Shown: piece after piece, positions 31,001 to 58,864 of the stretch
Layout of the letters: each line of letters starts with the position of its first letter
Position numbering within the stretch: position 1 is the first letter of the stretch
DNA from: a virus
Taxonomy: Duplodnaviria > Heunggongvirae > Uroviricota > Caudoviricetes
Direction: 5' to 3' (one strand)
Virus record (IMG/VR): IMGVR_UViG_3300021255_001602
Location: 1-64,000 of that record
Length of the DNA stretch: 64,000 nucleotides
Translations under genes and position numbers: made by a program
The notes under the pieces: model-generated
Databases searched by the model: none
What the model was told of the DNA's origin: nothing
The model's input: the letters and a program-made list of their open reading frames with translations, nothing else

Positions 31001-31077
31001 CGCGGGATGGAGAAGTTCGGTTTAACTCACTAGCTTCATGGGCTAGAGATTCGGGGGTTCAAATCCCCCTCCCGTTA
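31001..31077 (+). tRNA. tRNA with anticodon CAT (Met / possibly Ile2-lysidine type)
   Basis: cloverleaf: acceptor CGCGGGA/TCCCGTT (pos1 mismatch), anticodon stem CTAGC/GCTAG with loop TTCATGG, T-arm GGGGG-TTCAAAT-CCCCC; boundaries +/-2 nt. Confidence 0.55.
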
Positions 31078-42537: not shown

Positions 42538-43369
42538 TATTACTCAGCTTCAATTGTTCTACGGAGATGATTATGTCGTTAATGATTTCATTACTATTCA
42601 TCAGCCTACTATTGGGGATATTTTGGAATACGATAAACAATATGGTGAATTCAGTTTCTGGACGATGCTGAACGTGTTTACAGCTAATCCTACTAGTTAT
42701 CGCTTGTTCCTTTGGAAAGACATGAATATTGATTGGACTTTTTTAAATGATTATCAGTTGTTTTTAATTCTTTACAGGACTCTGAGTATAGAGCAGACCC
42801 GATTGATTTTTGGAGACTTGGACTTTTCTAAGTTCGAAATATATACTCTGCCTGAAGAAGAATGGACAAATATTGATGAAAAAGGAATTACAGATATTAT
42901 CAAAGTCTTACGAAATTCGACCCTCTATAATCCTGAATTGAAATTTGAGTTAGATGAAGATAGTTACAATGTAATTGTTTATTATTTAAGAAGTGCTTTT
43001 AATATGTTTCCTAAAATAGAAAAAGCAAAGGATCGTACTACTAAAGAATGGATGATTGAAGAAGAGGAAATGAAATTAAATGCTAAAAAAGATGAAGAAA
43101 CAAGTTCTACATCTTATCTTCTACCACTAATATCTGGCTGTATAAATCATCCCGGTTTCAAGTATAACAAACAAGAATTAAAAAACGTAAACTATTATGA
43201 ATTTATGGACAGTGTGCAAAGATTGCAAATCATTGAATCTACAAGTGCTTTGTTACACGGTTCGTATTCAGGTTTTGCTGATGTTTCTAAAGTAGATAAA
43301 GAGCAATTCAACTTCATGCGTGAGATTAAACATGAATATGATAGGGGAATTGCTAAAAATAAAAAATAA
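42479..43369 (+). CDS. hypothetical tail-completion region protein
   Basis: 296 aa ORF immediately upstream of the major tail protein locus. Confidence 0.45.
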   Translation: MSSMGIWARIIFTMTSVNSNITQLQLFYGDDYVVNDFITIHQPTIGDILEYDKQYGEFSFWTMLNVFTANPTSYRLFLWKDMNIDWTFLNDYQLFLILYRTLSIEQTRLIFGDLDFSKFEIYTLPEEEWTNIDEKGITDIIKVLRNSTLYNPELKFELDEDSYNVIVYYLRSAFNMFPKIEKAKDRTTKEWMIEEEEMKLNAKKDEETSSTSYLLPLISGCINHPGFKYNKQELKNVNYYEFMDSVQRLQIIESTSALLHGSYSGFADVSKVDKEQFNFMREIKHEYDRGIAKNKK

Positions 43370-43390
43370 CAAGAAAGGAAGGTAATTGCT

Positions 43391-43409
43391 ATGGCTTTTA
43401 AACTTGGTT
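43391..43409 (+). CDS. proposed exon 1 of major tail protein (MAFKLG..)
   Basis: good RBS GAAAGGAAGG 9 nt upstream of ATG 43391, but reading frame stops after 7 codons; downstream MTP body has no RBS of its own. Confidence 0.35.
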
Positions 43410-43777
43410 ATTAAATAGCCACTTTATACGGTAACGTATATCGCTTATGTTGGTGAACATATATTTATATGGTGTGTAATTCACTTTTGGAATCGTAGGA
43501 AATGACGATGAAGAATTATGCTAACAGGGGAAGCCTAAGTTGTTTTAGCGTAGACAATATGGTAATCCTGTGCCAAGCCTATTTATATAGGAAGGTCAAA
43601 CGATCATCCCGAAGGCAGTGAAATTCTGCAACAGGAGTAGGGCTAAGTGAAATTCTTAGTGGGTGAGAATCCCTTAAATCGAAGTGCCAACTATCCATTA
43701 TAATAAATGGATAAAGATATGATCTATTCCCTAATAAATATTACGAAAGTAAGGGTGTATAAAGGATTTAATTATTG
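43410..43777 (+). mobile_element. candidate group I intron 1 in major tail protein gene (no ORF)
   Basis: P-like CAGGGGAAGCCTAAG ~43524, Q-like GGTAATCCTG ~43561, R-like GGTCAAACGATCATCCCG ~43590, block AGTGGGTGAGAATCCCTTAAAT 43658-43679, S-like AAGATATGATC ~43707; 19-nt exon ending in U plus omega-G at 43777 restores frame. Confidence 0.55.
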
Positions 43778-44400
43778 ATAGAATTTCCATGGGTTATGCC
43801 GAGAAATTTGATGGCACACCTCTTTATGTCCTGACTCAGCTTTCTGAGGCTTCTATTGAGATTTCTGCAGAGTCTCGTGACGCTGTTGATAAGGACGGTA
43901 CGCTGATTAAGCGTTTCTGGAACGCAAAAACTGGTGAGTTTACTGCGACTAACGCAATGCTCAACCTGAACGTTATGGCAGCTCAGTCTGGTAACGATGC
44001 TAATATCGCTACTGCTGATAATGTTATTGTCATGCCTAAGATTATCACTGTTAAGAGTGGTACTACTGTCGATCTGGAGGGCTTTGTTACTGGTAATCGT
44101 ATCAGTGTGAATGCTCTGGGTACCAATGGTGCTATGGGTAAGGCTTATACTCAGGGTACTGCTGCTTCTGCGACTGAGTTTGGTCTGAATGGTACTAAAC
44201 TGACTCCTCCTACAGATACAACTGAGGCTCAGTATGTTGTTAAATATGATCGTCAGGTTACTGAGGGTGTTGATATTCTTAACTCTGCTGACAAGTTCCC
44301 GGCTACTGTTCGTCTGACTCTCAAGGGTCTCTGTGTCGATCCCTGTGAGGCCGATGTGCTGCGCGCTTTGTCGCATATTTATAATGATTTTTTCGTTTAT
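43778..44400 (+). CDS. major tail protein, exon 2 (ORF track 43789..44409)
   Basis: KFDGTPLYVLTQLSEASIEISAESRDAVDKDG... typical of Firmicute siphovirus major tail proteins; no SD upstream of its ATG; exon boundaries approximate. Confidence 0.6.
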
Positions 44401-44700
44401 AATATGTAAATGACGATTATAGAGTAATCTATATACACTTGCACATCGTTAAAATAAAATAAGTGTCAATAACAGCTATATCAGGGGAAGCCCAGAGATG
44501 GGTAATCCTGAGGAAAGACTTGGTAATATTATCAAGAATCCGCAACGACTACAGGATAAGACAACCAATTGTTTTATCGAAGCTGTTGCCCACAAGAATG
44601 ATGTGGGATGATATATAGTCTGAACTCACGCAATAATCTAAATAAGAAACGTGAGAGATAGGTAGAAATTCCTATCCGCTATAGTAATATAGTCAGTACC
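44401..44700 (+). mobile_element. candidate group I intron 2 in major tail protein gene (no ORF)
   Basis: P-like CAGGGGAAGCCCAGAG 44482, Q-like GGGTAATCCTG 44500, S-like GATATATAGTCTG ~44612; same P/Q pattern as intron 1. Confidence 0.5.
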
Positions 44701-44894
44701 CAATAAGCACTGGGGAAAGTAACAGTTTGGTTTACATCGTGCTTCCGTCCTTCCAGCCTAGCCCTGAGACCACTATCGCTCTGAATAGTGATAATCCTAC
44801 TCTGGACTTCAACGGCAGCTTGCAGGTTGACTACTGCTCGACTGATAAGGCACTGTATCATGTTTACTATGCAACAGCTGATGCTGAGCAGTAA
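44701..44894 (+). CDS. major tail protein, exon 3 (C-terminal ...LVYIVLPSFQPSPETTIALNSDNPTLDFNGSLQVDYCSTDKALYHVYYATADAEQ*)
   Basis: stop-free, protein-like frame (open from 44688) ending TAA 44892-44894, not preceded by any start codon/RBS; start approximate. Confidence 0.5.
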
Positions 44895-44897
44895 TAC

Positions 44898-44925
44898 TTG
44901 ACACATGTCTTTTACATGTTATAAT
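44898..44925 (+). promoter_or_regulatory. consensus-like promoter TTGACA-16-TATAAT with ACATGT...ACATGT symmetric spacer
   Basis: perfect -35 and -10 hexamers 4 nt after the MTP stop codon. Confidence 0.5.
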
Positions 44926-44941
44926 TAAATATAACTAATGG

Positions 44942-44976
44942 CATGGTGGGTGTCACAGCCCACCATGTTTTTATTT
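44942..44976 (+). terminator. strong intrinsic terminator (CATGGTGGGT/GCCCACCATG 10-bp stem, TTTTTATTT)
   Basis: GC-rich hairpin plus T-run only ~16 nt downstream of the promoter -10. Confidence 0.7.
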
Positions 44977-45022
44977 CAGAGTTTCAGGGAGGAAGAAGGG
45001 AAAATGTGAAAAGGAGTATTAT

Positions 45023-46264
45023 ATGCGAAAATGTGATTTGACAAAGGTTCCTAAAATTCTGAAAAATGGTAAAGAAGCCTGTGATTGGAGAAAAACTATT
45101 GGATTAAGTATACCATTTGAGTATGATGGTTTAAAGGATAGTTTTAAAATTGTGGGCTTCGAATCAAGAGATAAAGTATATGTGATATATAGAAATAAAA
45201 AATATATGCTTTATGGGAAATATATAAAAAAAGGCAGAATTGCCAAAATATTTGGGCAAACAATAGAATGGAAATATGCTGAAGGTGATATAATTAAAGA
45301 TCATATTGGTTCACATGATAGAAATATATTAATAACCGCAAGAAAATACGTTGAAATAAATAATAATCCAAATAATAGAAATCATAAATATTATCAATAC
45401 AGATGTTTAATATGTGGATATGATTGCGCTATGGATGATTTCTGGGTTAATGAGGCAGATTTAAGAGACGGTAAAGGATGCGGTTGTTGTGCGGGGACTA
45501 AGGTTATTGTAGGTGTAAATGATATATCTACTACCATACCTTGGGCTGTTCCTTATATTGATGATATTAATTATGTTCATACACATACTAAGACCAGTAA
45601 TAAAAAAACTGATATGACATGTCCTATTTGTGGTTTTAAAAAGAAAATGTGTGTGAGCAATTTATATTTTCAATCTTTTGCATGTCCTAAGTGTTCTGAT
45701 GGGTTTAGTTATCCAGAAAAATTTTTTCTTAATATTTTAGAGCAAGTAGGGGTAAAATATAAGACTCAATTAAATAAATCTGATTTTGAATGGTGTGAAA
45801 AATATCGGTATGATTTTTATTTGCCAGAATACCATTGTATTGTAGAAACGAATGGCGCACAACATTATGAAGACGGATGGCATAAAATAGAACTGCAAAG
45901 AAAGATTGATAAACAAAAGAAAGAATTAGCTTTGCAAAATGGAATTAAACACTATATTGAGTTAGATTGTAGTCGTTCTGAAAAAGATTATATCATACAA
46001 TCTTTAATTAAATCTAATATACCATTTGATTATTCTAATGTTGATTTTAATAAAGCCGACTTAGCAGCACAAAAAAATGTGTTAATTGCAACTTGTAAAT
46101 TATATAAGAATAATCCTAATATGACTCTTGCTAATATTGCAGATGAATACCATGTTCATATTAGTACTGTGGTGCGATATTTACAGAAAGGGAGAGAATT
46201 AGGATTATGTGATTATCGAGAATCTTTAAAAGGTAATCATAAGAAACGAAACAAAGGAGCGTAA
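45023..46264 (+). CDS. free-standing homing-endonuclease-like protein (zinc ribbons plus PD-(D/E)XK-like core plus C-terminal NUMOD1-like HTH)
   Basis: CLICG/CPICG/CPKC zinc knuckles; YDFYLPEYHCIVETNGAQHY (D...E.T/K nuclease-like); C-terminal TLANIADEYHVHISTVVRYLQKGRELG HTH; located between MTP and TMP where HEGs often sit. Confidence 0.5.
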   Translation: MRKCDLTKVPKILKNGKEACDWRKTIGLSIPFEYDGLKDSFKIVGFESRDKVYVIYRNKKYMLYGKYIKKGRIAKIFGQTIEWKYAEGDIIKDHIGSHDRNILITARKYVEINNNPNNRNHKYYQYRCLICGYDCAMDDFWVNEADLRDGKGCGCCAGTKVIVGVNDISTTIPWAVPYIDDINYVHTHTKTSNKKTDMTCPICGFKKKMCVSNLYFQSFACPKCSDGFSYPEKFFLNILEQVGVKYKTQLNKSDFEWCEKYRYDFYLPEYHCIVETNGAQHYEDGWHKIELQRKIDKQKKELALQNGIKHYIELDCSRSEKDYIIQSLIKSNIPFDYSNVDFNKADLAAQKNVLIATCKLYKNNPNMTLANIADEYHVHISTVVRYLQKGRELGLCDYRESLKGNHKKRNKGA

Positions 46265-48904: not shown

Positions 48905-51900
48905 ATGGCTCAAGGTACATTTGAAGGTGGTACAGTTACAATAAGAGGGGATGCTTCCCAATTAAAGAACGAATTGTTAGAAGTTAGTGAACTGTTAACC
49001 ACGTTAGAAAAAAGTAAGGTAAAATTAAAACCCGAAATTGATGTAAAAGATATAAAAAATCAAATCAACAAATTAGGACAGTATATGGAGGGTAGATTTG
49101 GAGCACTTGATTTTAGTAAAGTATATTCTGGTTTAATGTCGAGTGCTCAAAAGGATGGTAATAGATTTGCTAGTCAATTAAGCAGTACTATACGCAGCTT
49201 GAATTTATTAGATCAAGCTGTTAAACCAGAAGATGTAAGTAAACTAGCAGCGGCTTCAGCTGATGAAATTTCTAATCTTGTTGATGGAATAAATGGATTA
49301 TCACCTAAAACCAAACCAACTAGTAATTTAATTACTAAGAGATTACAAGCCCTTTATGATAAATATCCTAATGGTATCGAAGGATTAGGTGGTTCTGGTA
49401 AAGGTGGCGGTTTTGGTGCGTCTGAAGAAGCATTAAATAGAATTGGAGACACTTTAGATCGAATAGACGCTAATGTCCAAGGTATTACTGAATCTATTCG
49501 TAATGGTACTGGTACGTTAAAGGTAGCATCTCAAGACGCAGAAAAATATGCTGGAAGCATGGAAAAAGCTGAGACAGCGGCTAATAAGATGCAGACAGCA
49601 GTTGATAAGATGAAGCAAAAACAACAAAGTGTCAAAAATGCTTTAGAAGGTGAAAAAGTTGAAGCAGATTGGGATTGGACTTTACAGTATCTTAATGGGA
49701 CAAAAACGCCTACCTCGAAAAAGATTTCTAAACCTAAAACTCAAGTATCTGAAGCCCAACCTGAAATAAAAGTTTCTGCTCCTGATGTAACGCCGATAAA
49801 AAATGTGGTTAAAGCAGAAGAAGAGTTACATAATGCTGTGGAAGGTGCTACTGATGCTTTAAGAGAGCAGAATGACGCATTGCAAAACAACAGTATTTCC
49901 GTTCCTTCAACGGATAAAAAAGGATTAAGTTTTACAAAGGCAGTTGAACAAATTGGGGCACCAAAAGAAATTGCCAAATATTTAAAAGACCCGAAAAGTA
50001 TTAAGACCATTTTAAAAGGATTAGATGATGATAGTCTTAAAGGATTAGATATAGATCAGATACTTACTAATTTTTCAAATGATGATGATGCAAAATTAAA
50101 TAAAGCGTTAAATGATAAAATGAGAAGAGCTGCAATGTATGTTCAACAGATTGCGGCGATGTTCCCTGATGATTGGGAGGATATGTTTTCTGGTTTTTCA
50201 ATTTTTTCGCAAGGAGTAATGGGCAACTGGGCAGATGACATTGCTGCATTTTTTGAACAAACCAATGATTTAGTGGATGAAGCAACTGGTGATATTGATG
50301 ATAGTCGAGTAGAAGGATTGAAAATTACTTATGATAAATTAGTCGAAATAATGCAAGAATGGGCTGATTTATATAATACTGTTCGTCCAATGCTTGACAA
50401 AGGTATGTCTAAACAAGATATCGACACACGCTTAGATTTAATGAAGGGGTTTACTGAAGAAGATGTAAAAAGCAGTGAGTTGGGTACTTCTGGAACTGTT
50501 GATTTATATTCTCAAAAAATTGAGCAAACTCAACAACGACTTGATCAAATGGCTGAATTAAAATCATTATTAGATCAAGAAGAAGCGGCAGGACGAGTGC
50601 TGTCTGATCGGGAACTTATCTTTTTAAATAATTATCAAGAGTATGTAAATAAAGGCAACGCTATAGTTCAAAACGCAACAACAAGAAAAACCGCTTTAGA
50701 AAATCCTGAAGCTGTGCGTGAAGTGGCTCGTCAAAAAGTAGAACAAAGACAGCAAGAAAGTCAAATTAATTTTGAACAAGAAACATTAGAGGCAGCTAAG
50801 GCACAAGAAGAATTAGCAAAATCAGTAAGAGAGGCTAATAATGCCTTAAAGGAACAGAATGATGTTGGTAAAGATAATATCATGTATCACATGGGCAACT
50901 TGTCTGCTTCGAAAACTAAAGAAATTAGTCACCCATTTGGAGATGAATTTAAAGCGTGGTTTGAAGGGATTTATGATTCTGGAAGAGGTTGGGGTGATGG
51001 AACTGGTTTATATATGACCAGAAATAGAGATGAATACGCTCCCGAAATCGACCAGAAATCTTTAGAGAATTTTTATGCTATTGATACTTCAGGATTAAAT
51101 CTTTATGAAGCACACACAGAAGAAGCCGCTCAAGATTTTTACAATTTTATTCATCATATTGAACAATTATGTTTGCAAATTGGTACAGGAACAGAGAAAT
51201 TTGATGATAATTTAAAAGATATTGATTCAGAAAGTTTGTATACAGACTTTCAACGGGTATTTCCTAATATTCAGTTGTCATTTGAGCAATTTGATGATTT
51301 TATTACTAATATGTCTACAATGCTTGCTGATTCTGGACTTGATGAGAATGGTATTGCTGATGCTCAAAAATTAAATGCTTTTAAACAGAAATTCGGCAGC
51401 GATGATATAAAAACACGATTCCTTAAAATGCTTGGATATCAAGGTACAGATTTAAGTGGCACATCTTATGGTGGACTGCAATCAGGAAATGTGGTATTTG
51501 ACCCATTGGATAAAAATCGTATTATTGCTCAAGGTAAAAATATTGAGCAAGTTGCCCAAGAAGCTGTACAAAAAACAAAACAAGCATCAGAAGAAGCAAA
51601 GAAAAACGCAGATGATGCTAAAAAGGCGGCTGAAGAAGGTAAGAAAGCTGTAGAGGAAACTAAAGATAACAAAGAAAAAGCTGATGCCGTAATTCCTACT
51701 TCTGAATCTGCCCCTGATCTACAATCTACTATAGACAATGCTAATCAAGCAAATACCGAAACTGAAAAGCAGGTAATGTATGTAGAGCGTTCTTTCGATA
51801 CACTTAATAATTATTTAAGACAATATACTCAGGAATTAGCACAAAAGAAGCAAGAACGAGATGCGTTATTACAACAAATTCAATCTCTTCAAGATGGTAC

Positions 51901-54900: not shown

Positions 54901-56314
54901 TATTCAAGGACGTATCAACACTTATTTTACTAGTTATAAAGGTGCCTATACAAGCTTCTTTAGAGAAATAAAAGATTCCTTTAAGTCTCAGGCATTAGGC
55001 GAATTGCAGAATGAAATTGATCGTACATTTCAGACATTTGAAGATAGTATCACAAATCTTAATCGTGCTACTGGATTAAATCAAGGTGATTTTCTTAATA
55101 AAAATCTTAACACCAATGGTGGCAAAGCTACTGCTGGTCAGATTGAACAGCAACAAAAAATCAGAAATGCTATTGCTGAAAGTTATCGTGGATTAATTAC
55201 AGATATTTCTGATGAACTTACTAAAGTTCAAGACAGAATGGGTAACGTTTTAGGCGAAGGATTTTTAAGTCAGGATTACTTTAAGAATTTTGGTGAAAAA
55301 TTCACTGCTGGATTGGGTGATGCAAGTGAGTTTAAAGAATTTCAAAATAATGCACAAGGTGCTGTTGATTCATTAAATGAATTGCAAAAAATTCAAGAAC
55401 GCATGGCTAATGGCAGTCTTGATTTGACTCAACTAGCACCTGATAAATTAAAAGATCAGATTCAAGAAATTGTTAAATTATTTGCTGATCTTAATAAAAA
55501 TTATGCTGAAGTAGTTGAAAAGTCTAAGCAGTTTACTTTTGCTGATGTGGGGGATATTGAAAGACAAAGGGCGGGTATTACTCAGTTTATGAAGAGTAAT
55601 CCGGGTATCAGTGCTGATGCTAAAGCACAATTACAAGGATACTTTGATCAATTACAACAAGGAATAAGTCAAGCAGATTTTACAAAATTATCAGATGGAT
55701 GGAAACAAGTTGCGGATGCTGAACAAGCCGCTGGTAGGACTGGTGCTACATTTATGTCTGAACTCCAGACTCGTTTCAAATCCTTAGGCGCTTATCTCCT
55801 GTCCTTTGTTTCATTCTACAGAGTAATCGGTGTTTTCAAAGATGGTATTAATATTATCCATGAACTTGATGACGCTTTGACGGAAATGCAAAAAGTTTCA
55901 GATGAAAGTCTGAGTAGTTTAAGAGAATATCAAAAGAGTACATTTGATACAGCAAATCAGATCGGTACGACTGCGGCTCAGTTACAGACAAGTACTGCTG
56001 ATTGGATGAGGCTTGGTGAAGATTTACAAACAGCATCTCAATCTGCACAAACCGCAAACGTACTGTTTAATGTTTCTGAATTCGATAATATTAATGACGC
56101 AACAACTGCATTAGTTGCTATGAGTGCTGCGTATGCTGATGCGGAAGAAGGTATCGATAAGATGGACATCGTAGATAGATTGAATCTTATTGGTAATAAT
56201 TATGCAATAGCAACTGATGAATTGGCAACTGCTCTTCAGGATGGTGCAGCTGCATTACAAACAGCAGGGAATGATCTTGATGAAGCTATTGCTTTGACAA
56301 CAGCAGGTGAGATT
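48905..56314 (+). CDS. tail tape measure protein, exon 1 (~2470 aa; long coiled coils, Pro/Thr/Lys-rich linkers, conserved TMP core begins at its end)
   Basis: giant K/E/Q-rich coiled-coil ORF; C-terminal ...AMSAAYADAEEGIDKMDIVDRLNLIGNNYAIATDELATALQDGAAALQTAGNDLDEAIALTTAGEI resembles TP901-family TMP core; reading frame then hits a stop inside intron-like sequence. Confidence 0.6.
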
Positions 56315-56947
56315 AAATTGCCTGAATGCGTGGCGACACGTATATAGAACACATCTAATTGCTGGAAATCCTATTAGGATAATTAGCAGCGAAGCCATAT
56401 TGACATATGTTAATTAAAACGTATAATATATATGGAACGTTCAACGACTATTCCCGTGTCGGGGTTAGGACTAGAGAATACATATCCTAATCAATAGAAG
56501 TACGGCTCAATCGCAAATGGAGTGGGTGAGAATCCCTTAAATGGAAATGGTGTGCTCTCTTTTATTAAAGAGATGAAGATATAGTCTGATCCTACGAGTA
56601 ATCGTAGAAACAATATGTATTAATTAAATAAGCATATTAACAGTTATATCTTGCGAATATAACTGAACGTAAATGAATTTAATCACACAAGACGCCTCTA
56701 AAACGGGTAAACATTTGCCCTTAGATAACTATATCGGTTAAAAGCTGGGGACAGTTAAGACCGAGGTAACTCATAATAAAATGAGGCACCGTAGAGACTG
56801 CGGGGTATTATAGGTAACTATAATGCTGAAGTTATCCGTTATTTTAATAACGTAATATACAGTCCGATCTCACGATATAATCTAATTAATGAAACGTGAG
56901 ACATAGCCGGAAATGACTATGCGCCATATTTATATGGTCAGTAAGCG
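56315..56947 (+). mobile_element. candidate group I intron (TMP intron 1, ORF-less, ~630 nt)
   Basis: R-like GTTCAACGACTATTCCCGTG ~56446, 49-nt block AGTACGGCTCAATCGCAAATGGAGTGGGTGAGAATCCCTTAAATGGAAA 56499-56547, S element AAGATATAGTCTG ~56576; in-frame rejoining at U 56314 / G 56947 gives ...TTAGEI|KAESNRMKGVRTIALRL. Confidence 0.55.
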
Positions 56948-57280
56948 AAAGCTGAAAGTAACAGAATGAAAGGTGTTCGTACAATCGCCCTTCGTTTAAC
57001 AGGTACTAAAGAAGCGGCAGAAGAACTTGAAGAAATGGGTGAAGATACCTCTGACATGATAGTATCTCAATCCAAAATGCGTGAACTGATTATGAATGCT
57101 ACAAAGGTAGCTTCAAATAATTACAAAGGATTTGATATACAAGACGAGTTAGGTCGCTACAAATCAACTTATGAGATAATGTTGGGTCTCTCCCAAATCT
57201 GGGACGAAATTCGTCAAGCCGACCTTAAAACAGGCGATAACCGTCAGAACTTATTGCTTGAATCAATTGCAGGTAAATTT
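56948..57280 (+). CDS. tail tape measure protein, exon 2 (ORF-track 56966..57340 region; ...GVRTIALRLTGT...LLLESIAGKF)
   Basis: TMP-core-like sequence continues in frame with exon 1; no RBS; ends in intron. Confidence 0.55.
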
Positions 57281-58864
57281 TTGCCTGAAATATATGGAAA
57301 CATATATTTTAGAATGCGTTTAAATGCGTTGATTACCTAAAGCCTTATGCCACAATATAGGAGAAATCACTATATGAAGGATTAACAAGTTAAGGATGAT
57401 ACAATGGTTAATTCGCAGCGAAGCGCCTAAGTATGTTTTAATTAAATATATATGGTGAACGTTCAGAGACTATCCCCGTGTAGGGGTCTTAATAGACCAA
57501 TAGGAGTACGGCTCAATCGCAAATGGAGTGGGTGAGAATCCCTTAAATGGAAACAGCGCATATCCTAACAGATCAAGCTGAGGATAAAGAAATAGTCCGT
57601 GCTTGTGTGAAAGCATAAGAATAATGAATATTAATAGACAAGGAGCAATTATGGCAACAAGAATTTCAAAAGAATTAATTCAAATAATGTATGAAAAATA
57701 TGATAGTGGAATGACTATTGTTGATATATCTAAAGAAACAGGTGTAGGACAAGATACTGTTCGTAAATATATACGAAAAAGTGGACGCAAGCGTAGACCG
57801 TCAATAGAAAAACGGATCGGAGAAGAAGGAATTAAACAGATATGTAATTTATATACTCAAGATGCAATGGATGAGATACGTAGGCTATATCCTGATCTTA
57901 CTAAACAGCAAATATATAGCATTGCCAGTCGGCATCAAGTTAAAAATACTAATTATTTTTGGAGTCAAGAAGAGGTAGAATTTCTAGTTAATAATTTTGG
58001 CATTCTGTCTTATGATGAAATAGCGGCTCATTTTAATAATAGACATAACGTAAAAGCTATATCTACTAAAGCTATAAAACTTGGATTAACGACCTCTCAA
58101 CATTGGACTAAAGAAGAAGAGGATATTATAATTAAATATTACCCTCATATTCCATTAAACGAGGTGTTACAAATGCTTCCTCGCAGAAGTGCAAATGGTT
58201 TAAAGATACACGCTCTAAAAATGGGTGTTAAAGGGCTACAATATCTTTCTGAAAAATATTCAGATGAACAAAAACAATTTATTCTCGATAACTATGTGCT
58301 AATGTCTGACGAAGAAATTGCAAAAGTACTTGGTAAAACACCAGTTGGAATAAAAGAACAAAAACGGAAACTTGGCATTTATCAATTTAATAAAGAATAT
58401 CAAGGGTATGAAAGTTTGAGTAAATTACTTAGAGGTCAAATATCGACTTGGAAAAGATTAAGTTGTGAGCAGTGTGGTTATCAATGTGTTTTAACTGGGT
58501 CTAAAAACTTTGAAATACATCATTTATATAGTTTCAATAAGATATTGCAAGAAGCATTTGAAAGATGTAATGAACAAGGACTATTAAAATCTTATAATAT
58601 AGAAGATTACACCAAAGAAGAGTTGGATGTTATTATTCAACTTTTTTTAGATATACACGAAACCTATCCTTTAGGCGTATGTGTTGAAAAAGACTTACAT
58701 AAATTATTTCATGATATTTATGGTACAGGTGGCAATGTGCCAGAACAATGGGATGATTTTGTAAACAGATATAAAAAAGGTGAGTTTAATAATGTAAAAG
58801 CATCTTAGTTAATATTCATTATTAGGTAGATTTGCGACCTACCTTAACATTTCAAAAAAATAGG
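57281..58864 (+). mobile_element. candidate group I intron (TMP intron 2, ~1.58 kb) carrying an HNH homing endonuclease
   Basis: R element GTTCAGAGACTATCCCCGTG ~57468, identical 49-nt block 57505-57553, S element AAGAAATAGTCCG ~57590, then HEG ORF; exon 3 frame open from 58826. Confidence 0.55.
57651..58808 (+). CDS. intron-encoded HNH homing endonuclease with multiple N-terminal HTH repeats
   Basis: C-terminal CEQCGYQCVLTGSKNFEIHHLYSFNKILQE...H = C-x2-C...HH...N...H HNH motif; N-terminal repeated helix-turn-helix-like segments; ATG 57651 with AAGGAG RBS. Confidence 0.7.
   Translation: MATRISKELIQIMYEKYDSGMTIVDISKETGVGQDTVRKYIRKSGRKRRPSIEKRIGEEGIKQICNLYTQDAMDEIRRLYPDLTKQQIYSIASRHQVKNTNYFWSQEEVEFLVNNFGILSYDEIAAHFNNRHNVKAISTKAIKLGLTTSQHWTKEEEDIIIKYYPHIPLNEVLQMLPRRSANGLKIHALKMGVKGLQYLSEKYSDEQKQFILDNYVLMSDEEIAKVLGKTPVGIKEQKRKLGIYQFNKEYQGYESLSKLLRGQISTWKRLSCEQCGYQCVLTGSKNFEIHHLYSFNKILQEAFERCNEQGLLKSYNIEDYTKEELDVIIQLFLDIHETYPLGVCVEKDLHKLFHDIYGTGGNVPEQWDDFVNRYKKGEFNNVKAS

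Follow-up and report, generated by a model that had tools for sequence, protein, structure and literature searches.

Positions 43391-44894 of the 64,000-nt stretch of viral DNA analysed here (hereafter the window; IMG/VR record IMGVR_UViG_3300021255_001602, Caudoviricetes) very probably form one YomU-type siphovirus tail tube (major tail) gene that is interrupted, between codons, by two group I introns without an open reading frame (ORF). An initial annotation, made from the sequence alone, had proposed a tail gene in three exons and two introns, and this layout was borne out by intron-less alleles, against which both insertions are exact and the full-length protein is restored. The features discussed below are collected in Table 1.

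Table 1. Positions of exons, introns and associated elements in and around the candidate tail tube gene (window coordinates)
Feature	Position	Strand	Remarks
Shine-Dalgarno-like AAAGGAAGG	43374..43382	+	Read from sequence; conserved 5′ of the ATG in all aligned alleles
Exon 1, 18 nt, MAFKLG	43391..43408	+	Equals the first 6 codons of intron-less alleles
Intron 1, ORF-less group I, 356 nt, between codons	43409..43764	+	Exact insertion relative to L001, L009, L011
Intron 1 P1 hairpin	43405..43421	+	UGGU/UAU (43405-11; slash marks the splice site) with internal guide AUAGCCA (43415-21); read from sequence
Intron 1 P7 region	43602..43724	+	GAUCA 43602-06 with UGAUC 43720-24
Exon 2, 603 nt, 201 codons, DLIIDRISMGY...CEADVLRA	43765..44367	+	Homolog protein and DNA alignments
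Exon 2 segment GAUGUGC, -15 to -9 from the intron 2 5′ splice site	44353..44359	+	Complementary to intron 2 loop L2.1
Intron 2, ORF-less group I, 362 nt, between codons	44368..44729	+	Exact insertion relative to L009, L011
Intron 2 guide region	44406..44415	+	GUAAAU (44406-11), P10 with exon 3 GUUUAC (44730-35); GACG (44412-15), P1 with exon CGCU (44364-67)
Intron 2 P2.1 hairpin	44435..44466	+	ACACUU 44435-40 with AAGUGU 44461-66
Intron 2 P7 region	44547..44620	+	GACUA 44547-51 with UAGUC 44616-20
Exon 3, 165 nt, VYIVLPSFQPSPETT...ADAEQ and stop at 44892-94	44730..44894	+	Homolog protein and DNA alignments
Intrinsic terminator-like hairpin and T-run, 3′ of the tube gene	44940..44969	+	12-bp stem, 6 G-C pairs
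Free-standing putative homing endonuclease gene, 413 aa	45023..46264	+	Separates the tube gene from the following conserved gene; PHROG matches

Exons and reading frame

Because intron-less alleles in other metagenomic phages can be aligned to the window, the boundaries are fixed to the base. In DNA alignments with the intron-less alleles L009 and L011 and with L001, L002 and L005, which carry intron 2 only, the introns stand out as cleanly inserted blocks, 356 and 362 nt long, with unambiguous boundaries. The exact junctions proposed initially to restore the frame had to be corrected by the intron-less alleles. Exon 1 has six codons (MAFKLG) rather than seven, the seventh codon and the stop belonging to the intron; exon 2, first taken as 43789..44409, in fact spans 43765-44367, and ATG 43789 is not its start; the first base of exon 3 is 44730 and not 44688. 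The spliced coding sequence is 786 nt long, instead of the ~810 nt expected, and encodes 261 aa. Other early junction candidates (exon 2 start at 43756, exon 2 end at 44397, exon 3 start at 44697, 44715 or 44742) were ruled out by homolog alignment.

The strong ribosome binding site (RBS) reported in front of a 7-codon ORF is present: the purine-rich AAAGGAAGG at 43374-43382 lies 8 nt 5′ of ATG 43391, where the ORF ATG GCT TTT AAA CTT GGT TAT TAA starts, and serves the entire split gene. The ORF at 43789-44409 (206 aa) indeed has no Shine-Dalgarno-like sequence upstream, and the orphan C-terminal frame is stop-free from 44688 up to the stop at 44892-44894. Both introns are ORF-less as described, the longest ORF inside either one in the ORF list being 39 aa. 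Because in-frame stops occur early in both introns, at the second codon of intron 1 (TAT TAA) and at the 14th of intron 2, unspliced RNA would be unable to yield the tube protein. Early in-frame stops are common in phage introns (PMC2504315, PMC3984707).

The encoded tube protein

We aligned the joined exons to intact homologs. The spliced 261-aa product matches six intact 261-aa homologs without gaps at 91-95% identity. In total, 646 homologs were found, and the close ones carry the domain PF27173 (YomU_Tube) according to precomputed assignments. The spliced product matched the profile phrog_2729 ('virion structural protein') with an E-value of 8.6e-17, and coverage of this profile rose from positions 19-192 with exon 2 alone to 18-240 with the spliced product. 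No match came from the local Pfam copy when searched with the exon-2 protein, nor from 50,697 phage records searched by tblastn with exon 2. The AF2 model of P0001, a homolog 95% identical to the window protein, is of low confidence (pLDDT 61.6); a Foldseek search of the PDB with this low-confidence model returned phage tail tube or major tail proteins as all of its top 12 matches (E 3e-6 to 5e-4, TM 0.2-0.3). The encoded protein belongs to the same family as SPbeta YomU and the phage SPR tail tube protein (PF27173; PDB 8xkn, 8ygm), whereas its identity to these solved structures is ~16-17% in the Foldseek alignment, and the phage of the window is uncultured.

Group I cores in both introns

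Searches with the Rfam model RF00028 in a 1.7-kb scan matched both gaps at E ~1e-8, intron 1 at 43399-43746 (40.4 bits, E 2e-8) and intron 2 at 44388-44632 (38.9 bits, E 5.8e-8). These values are significant for the 1.7 kb searched and, rescaled to the whole window, are still ~1e-6, but both scores lie under the Rfam gathering score of 50 bits. Whole-window Rfam searches gave nothing in the tube gene region, whether cut off at the gathering threshold or at E<=0.01; the matches are confined to the narrow scan. One related intron in the window was undetected by Rfam even in a 2-kb scan.

The structures were drawn by hand from the window sequence and then checked in relatives, across which the helices are paired in 96-98% of cells, compared with ~35% when the partners are slid. 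For intron 1, whose family alignment consists of only four sequences (the window and the relatives L197, L185 and L192), 95.7% of cells are paired over 82 pairs versus 34-46% slid, with 32 compensatory pairs including some in P3, P4 and P7. For intron 2, with 14 distinct sequences in the family alignment and 95 pairs, the values are 97.9% versus ~36%, with 41 compensatory pairs including some in P3, P4, P5, P7 and P8. P7 of intron 1 encloses a P7.1/P7.2 module, P3′ (43686-91) and P8 (43693-99 with 43706-12) and covaries to GACCA/UGGUC and GACUA/UAGUC in relatives; P7 of intron 2 encloses P7.1 (44555-64 with 44569-78), P3′ (44581-87) and P8 (44589-94 with 44602-07) and covaries to GACUG/CAGUC in L166 and L167. 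The shared element that had been noticed in both gaps, CAGGGGAAGCC...GGTAATCCTG at 43525-43571 and 44482-44510, corresponds to P4/P5 and P5′/P4′. The terminal guanosines, G43764 of intron 1 and G44729 of intron 2, were set by alignment to the intron-less alleles. The group I identity suggested initially is therefore upheld by a P1 with U·G at the 5′ splice site, by G as the last intron base, by helices P3-P9 with P7, and by compensatory changes. At the level of sequence comparison, the results presented here establish ribozyme architecture with covariation, exact insertions and restoration of the full-length protein.

In intron 1, the splice-site wobble U43408·G43418 is U·G in all four aligned family members, and the P1 duplex has an energy of -5.8 kcal/mol; P10 (UAAAU/AUUUA) is weak at +0.9 kcal/mol. 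By blastn, intron 1 is similar to introns in the Staphylococcus SEP9 DNA polymerase and Bacillus AR9/PBS1 RNA polymerase genes. A 19-nt P7.2 motif, GGGTGAGAATCCCTTAAAT, occurs in exactly three copies in the window, every copy within an intron. At the tube gene site, intron 1 was recovered solely from the allele of the window itself, which five contigs carry; an exact search of IMG/VR for the exon 1/intron 1 junction returned none.

The 5′ splice site of intron 2

Because the guide of intron 2 reads GACG and not GGCG, the exon part of its P1 is very weak: at the homology-defined site it comprises four pairs, one of them a C·A mismatch in the window allele, with an energy of -0.7 kcal/mol. The splice-site pair is the wobble U44367·G44412, and the mismatch is C44366·A44413 at exon position -2. 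Among the 14 family sequences, the splice-site pair is U·G in 13 and C-G in L166, and the GACG variant of the guide is found in six. Guide and exon covary (AGCU/GGCU, CGCU/GGCG, UGCU/GGCA), and the 6-bp P10 is paired in 95% of cells. We infer that the 5′ splice site used in vivo lies after U44367.

An alternative is that intron 2 splices, solely or as a second isoform, from a cryptic site after U44397 (P1 = UCGUU/GACGA) to G44729, in which case 30 extra in-frame nt would give a 271-aa tube protein with the 10-aa insert LSHIYNDFFV after Ala207. We consider this unlikely. The cryptic pairing (UCGUU at 44393-97) is the one picked by the Rfam alignment, its duplex is stronger than P1 at the homology-defined site (-3.2 versus -0.7 kcal/mol), and throughout the 'UUG...' subfamily (window, L001, L018, L161-L164) the 30 nt keep the frame and contain no stop. 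However, throughout the family the guide changes in step with the true exon end: opposite A, C or U at exon position -4 it has U, G or A, respectively. The same UUUCGUUUAU element is out of frame in L025, and L166 has the GACG guide without a cryptic partner. Because only one of ~12 substitutions in the 30 nt is synonymous, the stretch does not evolve as coding sequence, and the 10-aa insert is missing from every intact homolog. A closing stem, CAUAUU/AAUAUG (CAUU/AAUG and CAUUUA/UAAAUG in relatives), instead makes the segment part of a hairpin that extends P1, and a further helix between exon 2 and the intron, described below, lies 9 nt 5′ of the homology-defined site.

A possible second contact between exon 2 and intron 2

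The first seven loop bases of P2.1 in intron 2, GCACAUC (44441-47), form 7 bp with exon positions 44353-59. This exon/L2.1 helix has an energy of -9.2 kcal/mol, compared with -0.7 to -4.6 kcal/mol for the exon part of P1. Across the 14 distinct family members, five of its seven pairs show compensatory changes, and 92.6% of cells are paired versus 12-60% when slid; the pairing follows synonymous as well as Val/Thr/Glu codon variation in the tube gene. The helix, which would contribute most of the energy that holds the exon, is probably the main hold on the 5′ exon of intron 2. That the family uses a second exon-binding site beyond the canonical group I architecture is a tentative proposal, which we hold with somewhat less than even confidence.

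The open-access literature searched yielded nothing relevant on pairing between a 5′ exon and a peripheral loop in group I introns, which is weak evidence of novelty. The only member of the intron 2 family found in another gene is intron B of the adjoining giant tail gene, which lacks P2 and P2.1 and is hence uninformative on the exon/L2.1 helix. To our knowledge, no second exon-binding helix is known for the introns of Staphylococcus phage Twort. The arrangement resembles the EBS2-IBS2 pairing of group II introns, in which a second intron loop likewise pairs with the exon just 5′ of the primary exon-binding site and the exon covaries; the likeness is an analogy only, since the ribozyme here is group I, the partner is the P2.1 loop and there is no evolutionary relationship. 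If real and undescribed, the helix would be a natural group I counterpart of EBS2-IBS2, and it would explain exon retention and site choice by an intron with a P1 of 3-4 bp. It offers a testable hypothesis for how group I introns with a weak P1 might hold and choose their exons.

Proposed route of expression

We infer that both introns are catalytically active and spliced. A single pre-mRNA would extend from the RBS-bearing exon 1 through the terminator at 44940-69, and each intron would fold into its group I core. In the standard first step, free guanosine bound at P7 would attack after U43408 in intron 1 and after U44367 in intron 2, each of these uridines being held in a U·G wobble with the internal guide. 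In the second step, the released 5′ exon would attack after the terminal G43764 or G44729, aligned by P10, and the ligated 786-nt frame would be translated into the 261-aa tube protein.

It is highly improbable that the insertions are instead decayed, non-splicing intron remnants in a gene that is a pseudogene or is expressed in pieces, as a 206-aa fragment and a 55-aa TTG-initiated fragment behind GGGGAAAG. In favour of this reading are the Rfam scores under threshold, the C·A mismatch in intron 2 P1 and the TTG ORF (44727-44894) with a purine-rich stretch 8 nt upstream, but the core helices are all intact and changes in the family are compensatory rather than disruptive, the exons are free of frameshifts and stops and are 91-95% identical to intact genes, and exon 2 has no RBS. 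Moreover, GGGGAAAGUAACAG is conserved across the intron family as a structural element near the 3′ end and is also present in an unrelated tail gene (56954-68), and the GACG guide is retained in diverged intron lineages. The two-intron allele recurs in at least three samples with independent assemblies, on five phage contigs of 61-69 kb, and no second copy of the tube gene was found in the window.

Intron distribution and mobility

A 16-mer scan of JGI metagenomes with the intron 2 core gave 120 loci, nearly all of them chance matches; only L059, L072 and L123 are real. In IMG/VR, the candidate intron 2 relatives L030, L036 and L038 proved to be coding-sequence coincidences.

The 413-aa ORF downstream of the tube gene (45023-46264) matched PHROG 4538 (E 4e-58), 559 ('HNH endonuclease', 7e-25) and 9084 ('homing endonuclease', 1e-18); sequence searches of Pfam and the PDB with the putative endonuclease gave no match. 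Its gene stands beside intron-2-bearing alleles only: not one of 12 alleles without introns has it, and most intron-2 alleles do, though L021-23, L123 and L025 lack it. This distribution suggests that intron 2 and the adjacent free-standing putative endonuclease gene probably spread together, through the trans-acting route known as 'collaborative' homing. Collaborative homing of an ORF-less intron with a free-standing endonuclease has precedents in T4 (mobE/nrdB) and in cyanophage, where F-CphI accompanies the psbA intron (PMC3984707, PMC2790892, PMC6083498). As in these systems, an ORF-less intron in the window has a free-standing, here putative, endonuclease gene close by; in contrast to them, the gene is located 3′ of the tube gene, ~300 nt from intron 2, and some intron-bearing alleles lack it.

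Comparison with other intron-bearing tail genes

Introns in tail structural genes had initially been called rare, which is only partly fair: tail tube and tape-measure cases are documented (PMC11878797, PMC2504315). A tail tube gene interrupted by group I introns is not a new kind of system, the precedents being Twort orf142 and Bacillus cereus-group prophages. As cited in PMC11878797, orf142 of Staphylococcus phage Twort is a tail tube gene with three group I introns (Landthaler & Shub 1999). Going by that citation, orf142 and the window gene are alike in that one tail tube gene holds several small group I introns and a structural protein depends on splicing; they differ in that Twort is a myovirus, its tube protein presumably belonging to another family and its gene having three introns instead of two, and in that splicing is experimental there and deduced from alignments here. 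The same citation mentions exon skipping between the Twort introns. By analogy, exon skipping is conceivable in the window gene, where direct ligation of exons 1 and 3 would preserve the reading frame.

In Bacillus cereus-group prophages, group I introns occur in tail tube and tape-measure genes (Tourasse & Kolsto 2008, PMC2504315). Like those in the window, they are ORF-less or ORF-bearing and lie in frame in siphovirus tail genes; several sites per gene are used, different introns occur at one site, and P1 and P10 are fitted to the site (PMC2504315). Hosts and phages differ, and a tube gene there carries one intron, as opposed to two here, beside a giant tail gene with a further three. With its densely intron-invaded tail module, the window joins the small number of cases in which virion assembly would depend on splicing.

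Gene callers break this essential structural gene into a 'truncated' tube protein of 206-220 aa and orphan fragments, and Rfam default thresholds miss both tube gene introns. Truncated tube protein clusters of the split-gene type number dozens in public protein collections.

The gene next to the tube gene carries PF27256 (YomW) in relatives. The adjoining giant tail gene has three further introns and a 33-nt micro-exon. Together, the two adjacent tail genes hold five group I introns of two families, with one free-standing and one intron-encoded putative endonuclease.

Tail tube gene and its introns

The initial annotation proposed a tail tube gene split into three exons, and the features it drew on were all found at 43374-44894: the ATG at 43391 starts a 7-codon ORF, the 206-aa ORF at 43789-44409 lacks a ribosome-binding site, a frame without stops runs from 44688 to the stop codon at 44892-94, and the blocks CAGGGGAAGCC...GGTAATCCTG are common to both gaps. 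We defined the junctions by protein alignment and by DNA alignment against intron-less metagenomic alleles (loci L009 and L011) and alleles carrying intron 2 only (L001, L002 and L005). The borders were unambiguous, with CTTGGT and GATTTA flanking intron 1 (43409-43764), CGCGCT and GTTTAC flanking intron 2 (44368-44729), and both insertion points between codons. The joined CDS (18 + 603 + 165 = 786 nt) encodes 261 aa and aligns without gaps with six intact 261-aa homologs (91-95% identity). These alignments supported the two-intron gene and corrected the exact junctions first proposed for it. Independent assemblies from at least three samples, 5 contigs in all, contain the two-intron allele, and no second copy of the tube gene was found within the window. 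Judged from sequence comparison, the locus is very probably a tail tube gene that would need the removal of two group I introns.

The homolog search with the concatenated exons yielded 646 proteins, the best of which are intact (260-262 aa) and contain PF27173, the YomU_Tube family of SPbeta tail tubes; a large number of homolog clusters are 208-221 aa long and end directly after ...CEAD(V/T)LRA. Coverage of PHROG 2729 ('virion structural protein') extended from profile positions 19-192 with exon 2 alone to 18-240 with the spliced product. For the 95% identical homolog P0001, AlphaFold gave a model of low confidence (pLDDT 61.6), and all 12 significant PDB matches of this model were phage tail tube or major tail proteins. 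The adjoining genes in relatives carry YomW, and next comes a giant tail gene. Because of these homolog families, PHROG coverage, PDB matches and neighbouring genes, the name major tail (tube) protein is correct.

Whole-window Rfam scans reported group I introns only outside the tube gene, at 56299-56608 and 57264-57619. When the scan was restricted to 43300-45000, the group I intron model RF00028 matched both gaps, at 43399-43746 (40.4 bits, E 2e-8) and 44388-44632 (38.9 bits, E 5.8e-8), although both matches are under its gathering score of 50 bits. Both introns are ORF-less as claimed, with no ORF longer than 39 aa. Motif searches over the window identified exactly three intron-1-type and two intron-2-type introns. 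In a blastn search of the tube region against phage records, only intron 1 had matches, which are known intron-bearing sites in the Staphylococcus SEP9 DNA polymerase and Bacillus AR9/PBS1 RNA polymerase genes.

Like the window, Bacillus cereus-group prophages contain group I introns in the tail tube gene; introns occur there in tail tube and tape-measure genes, at several sites per gene and with different introns at one site (PMC2504315). Because such introns are already documented, their supposed rarity is only partly justified, and the split tube gene is a further, well-supported case of a known phenomenon. What goes beyond the routine is a covarying second exon-binding helix and the intron density in the tail module.

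Features of the tail module and its introns
Feature	Position	Description
tRNA gene	31001-31077	Rfam, 46 bits
Shine-Dalgarno-like AAAGGAAGG	43374-82	8 nt 5' of ATG 43391
Intron 1 P1 hairpin	U43408.G43418	UGGU/UAU (slash, splice site) with AUAGCCA; splice-site pair
Intron 1 stop codon	43412-14	UAA, inside P1 loop
Intron 1 P2		GUAA cap
Intron 1 P3	43449-54 with 43686-91	
Intron 1 other helices		P4-P6, P7 (GAUCA/UGAUC), P7.1/P7.2 module, P8, P9 with GAAA cap
Intron 1 last nucleotide	G43764	
Intron 2 helices		P1, P2, P2.1, P3-P6a, P7, P7.1, P8, P9-P9.3, P10
Putative endonuclease ORF	45023-46264	413 aa; between tube gene and conserved 137-141 aa gene; PHROG 'HNH endonuclease' and 'homing endonuclease' matches
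Giant tail gene intron A	56309-56675	Group I
Giant tail gene micro-exon	56676-56708	33 nt, between introns A and B; encodes NLITQDASKTG
Giant tail gene intron B	56709-56968	260 nt; intron 2 family
Giant tail gene intron C	57275-58855	Group I; contains 401-aa ORF
Intron C ORF	57603-58808	401 aa; HTH-, HNH- and D5-like PHROG matches

Intron structures and the 5' splice site of intron 2

Across intron 1 and three IMG/VR relatives (L197, L185 and L192), 95.7% of the cells (pair positions across the aligned sequences) were paired, compared to 34-46% when the partners were slid against each other, and 32 pairs were compensatory, P3 and P7 among these. The approximately 65 nt between the P3 5' strand and P4 form three covarying helices (two hairpins) common to the closest relatives.

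For intron 2, we used 14 distinct family members, every one at the LRA/V site of tube genes. The hand-drawn structure had 97.9% of cells paired compared to about 36% when slid, with compensatory changes in 41 of 95 pairs. The guide covaries with the exon end (AGCU with GGCU, CGCU with GGCG, UGCU with GGCA), and (G/A)UAAAU, immediately 5' of the guide, forms P10 with exon 3 bases 1-6. In the window and five more members, the guide is GACG instead of GGCG, resulting in a C.A mismatch beside the U.G pair; the exon part of P1 in the window allele contributes only -0.7 kcal/mol (nearest-neighbour energy). In L166 (3001-4144), the final exon base is C instead of U (GCC), and a C-G pair stands at the 5' splice site in place of the U.G wobble.

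Splicing might instead start from a cryptic intronic 5' site, UCGUU at 44393-97 (region 44393-44416), 30 nt 3' of the true site, which would add 10 in-frame residues. This element pairs perfectly with the guide, its UCGUU/GACGA duplex reaches -3.2 kcal/mol compared to -0.7 at the homology-defined site, and it is the P1 picked by Rfam's alignment. However, the guide changes in step with the true exon end, the element is out of frame in L025, L166 has the GACG guide but lacks the cryptic partner, and the 10-residue insert is missing from all intact proteins. The 30 nt before the cryptic site carry nearly exclusively non-synonymous changes and fold as a P1-extension hairpin with a covarying closing stem. 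Because of this combined evidence, use of the cryptic site is very improbable.

A second contact accompanies the homology-defined junction: P2.1 loop bases 1-7 (GCACAUC, 44441-47) match the exon at positions -15 to -9 (GAUGUGC, 44353-59) in perfect complementarity. The match persists while the exon varies (GAUGUGU with loop GCACAUC, including one G.U pair; GAUACGU with ACGUAUC; GAUACGC with GCGUAUC; GACACGC with GCGUGUC or GUGUC; GAUAC with GUAUC; AGACGUCU with AGACGUCU; GGACG with CGUCC). For this helix alone, 92.6% of cells were paired across the 14 sequences compared to 12-60% when slid, compensatory changes affected 5 of 7 pairs, and the covariation was equalled in none of 500 shuffles. 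No other contact between exon and intron is as strong as this helix (-9.2 kcal/mol). Because the same exon polymorphisms also occur in intron-less alleles, the P2.1 loop adapts to the exon. One interpretation is that the helix clamps the exon or serves as a second guide, which would make up for a P1 of 3-4 bp; a published account of such pairing was not found in the literature searched, itself of limited reach.

Further introns in the tail module

Homolog comparison of the giant, tape-measure-like tail gene, which starts at 48905, revealed three introns compared to the two reported by Rfam, with reading resumed at 58856 after intron C. Intron-less relatives are uninterrupted (...AIALTTAG-NLITQDASKTG-KGIRTIALRLTG... 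and ...LLLESIAG-KNRASIA...), and intron-less L202 and L205 confirmed the junctions. Intron B, which lacks P2 and P2.1 and ends in GAAAGUAACAGAAUG as tube intron 2 does, gave no RF00028 match, not even when 2 kb were scanned at E<=0.01; it was detected only via blastn with intron 2 and homolog comparison. Introns A and C follow an identical exon hexamer, GCAGGU (56303-56308 and 57269-57274), and have similar guides.

The tube gene family is an intron hot spot: the LRA/V site carries many intron variants among its alleles, and truncated homologs suggest a third intron site after ...DFTG. In relatives, this third site follows ...IDFTG (L025 3573-3910, L026 from 3574; proteins P0064 and P0070). 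Because an 82-nt stretch of the L026 intron is 88% identical to 43452-43532 of window intron 1, introns of this family occur at different tube-gene sites in different phages. L025 seems to contain a duplicated exon segment. Joining exon 1 to exon 3 of the tube gene keeps the frame; by analogy, exon skipping like that reported for Twort orf142 is conceivable.

Putative endonuclease gene and flanking region

In intron-less alleles, a conserved gene of 137-141 aa lies directly 3' of the tube gene. The 413-aa ORF, which had no sequence match in Pfam or PDB, occurs in 0 of 12 intron-less alleles. It accompanies intron 2 in the window, L001-L006, L017, L018, L020, L026, L161, L164/165, L166, L199 and L200, and is missing from the intron-bearing alleles L021-23, L123 and L025. 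This distribution fits trans or 'collaborative' homing, which here would pair an ORF-less intron with a putative free-standing endonuclease; homing of this kind has been described (PMC3984707, PMC2790892).

Four nucleotides past the tube stop codon starts a sigma-70 promoter that fits the consensus perfectly (TTGACA, 16 nt, TG-TATAAT; 12 of 12 matches) and has an extended -10; approximately 14 nt 3' of the promoter lies a strong terminator hairpin (44940-69). Their product could be a very short transcript, or they could regulate entry into the endonuclease gene. This region (44898-44969) is partly conserved in intron-less alleles.
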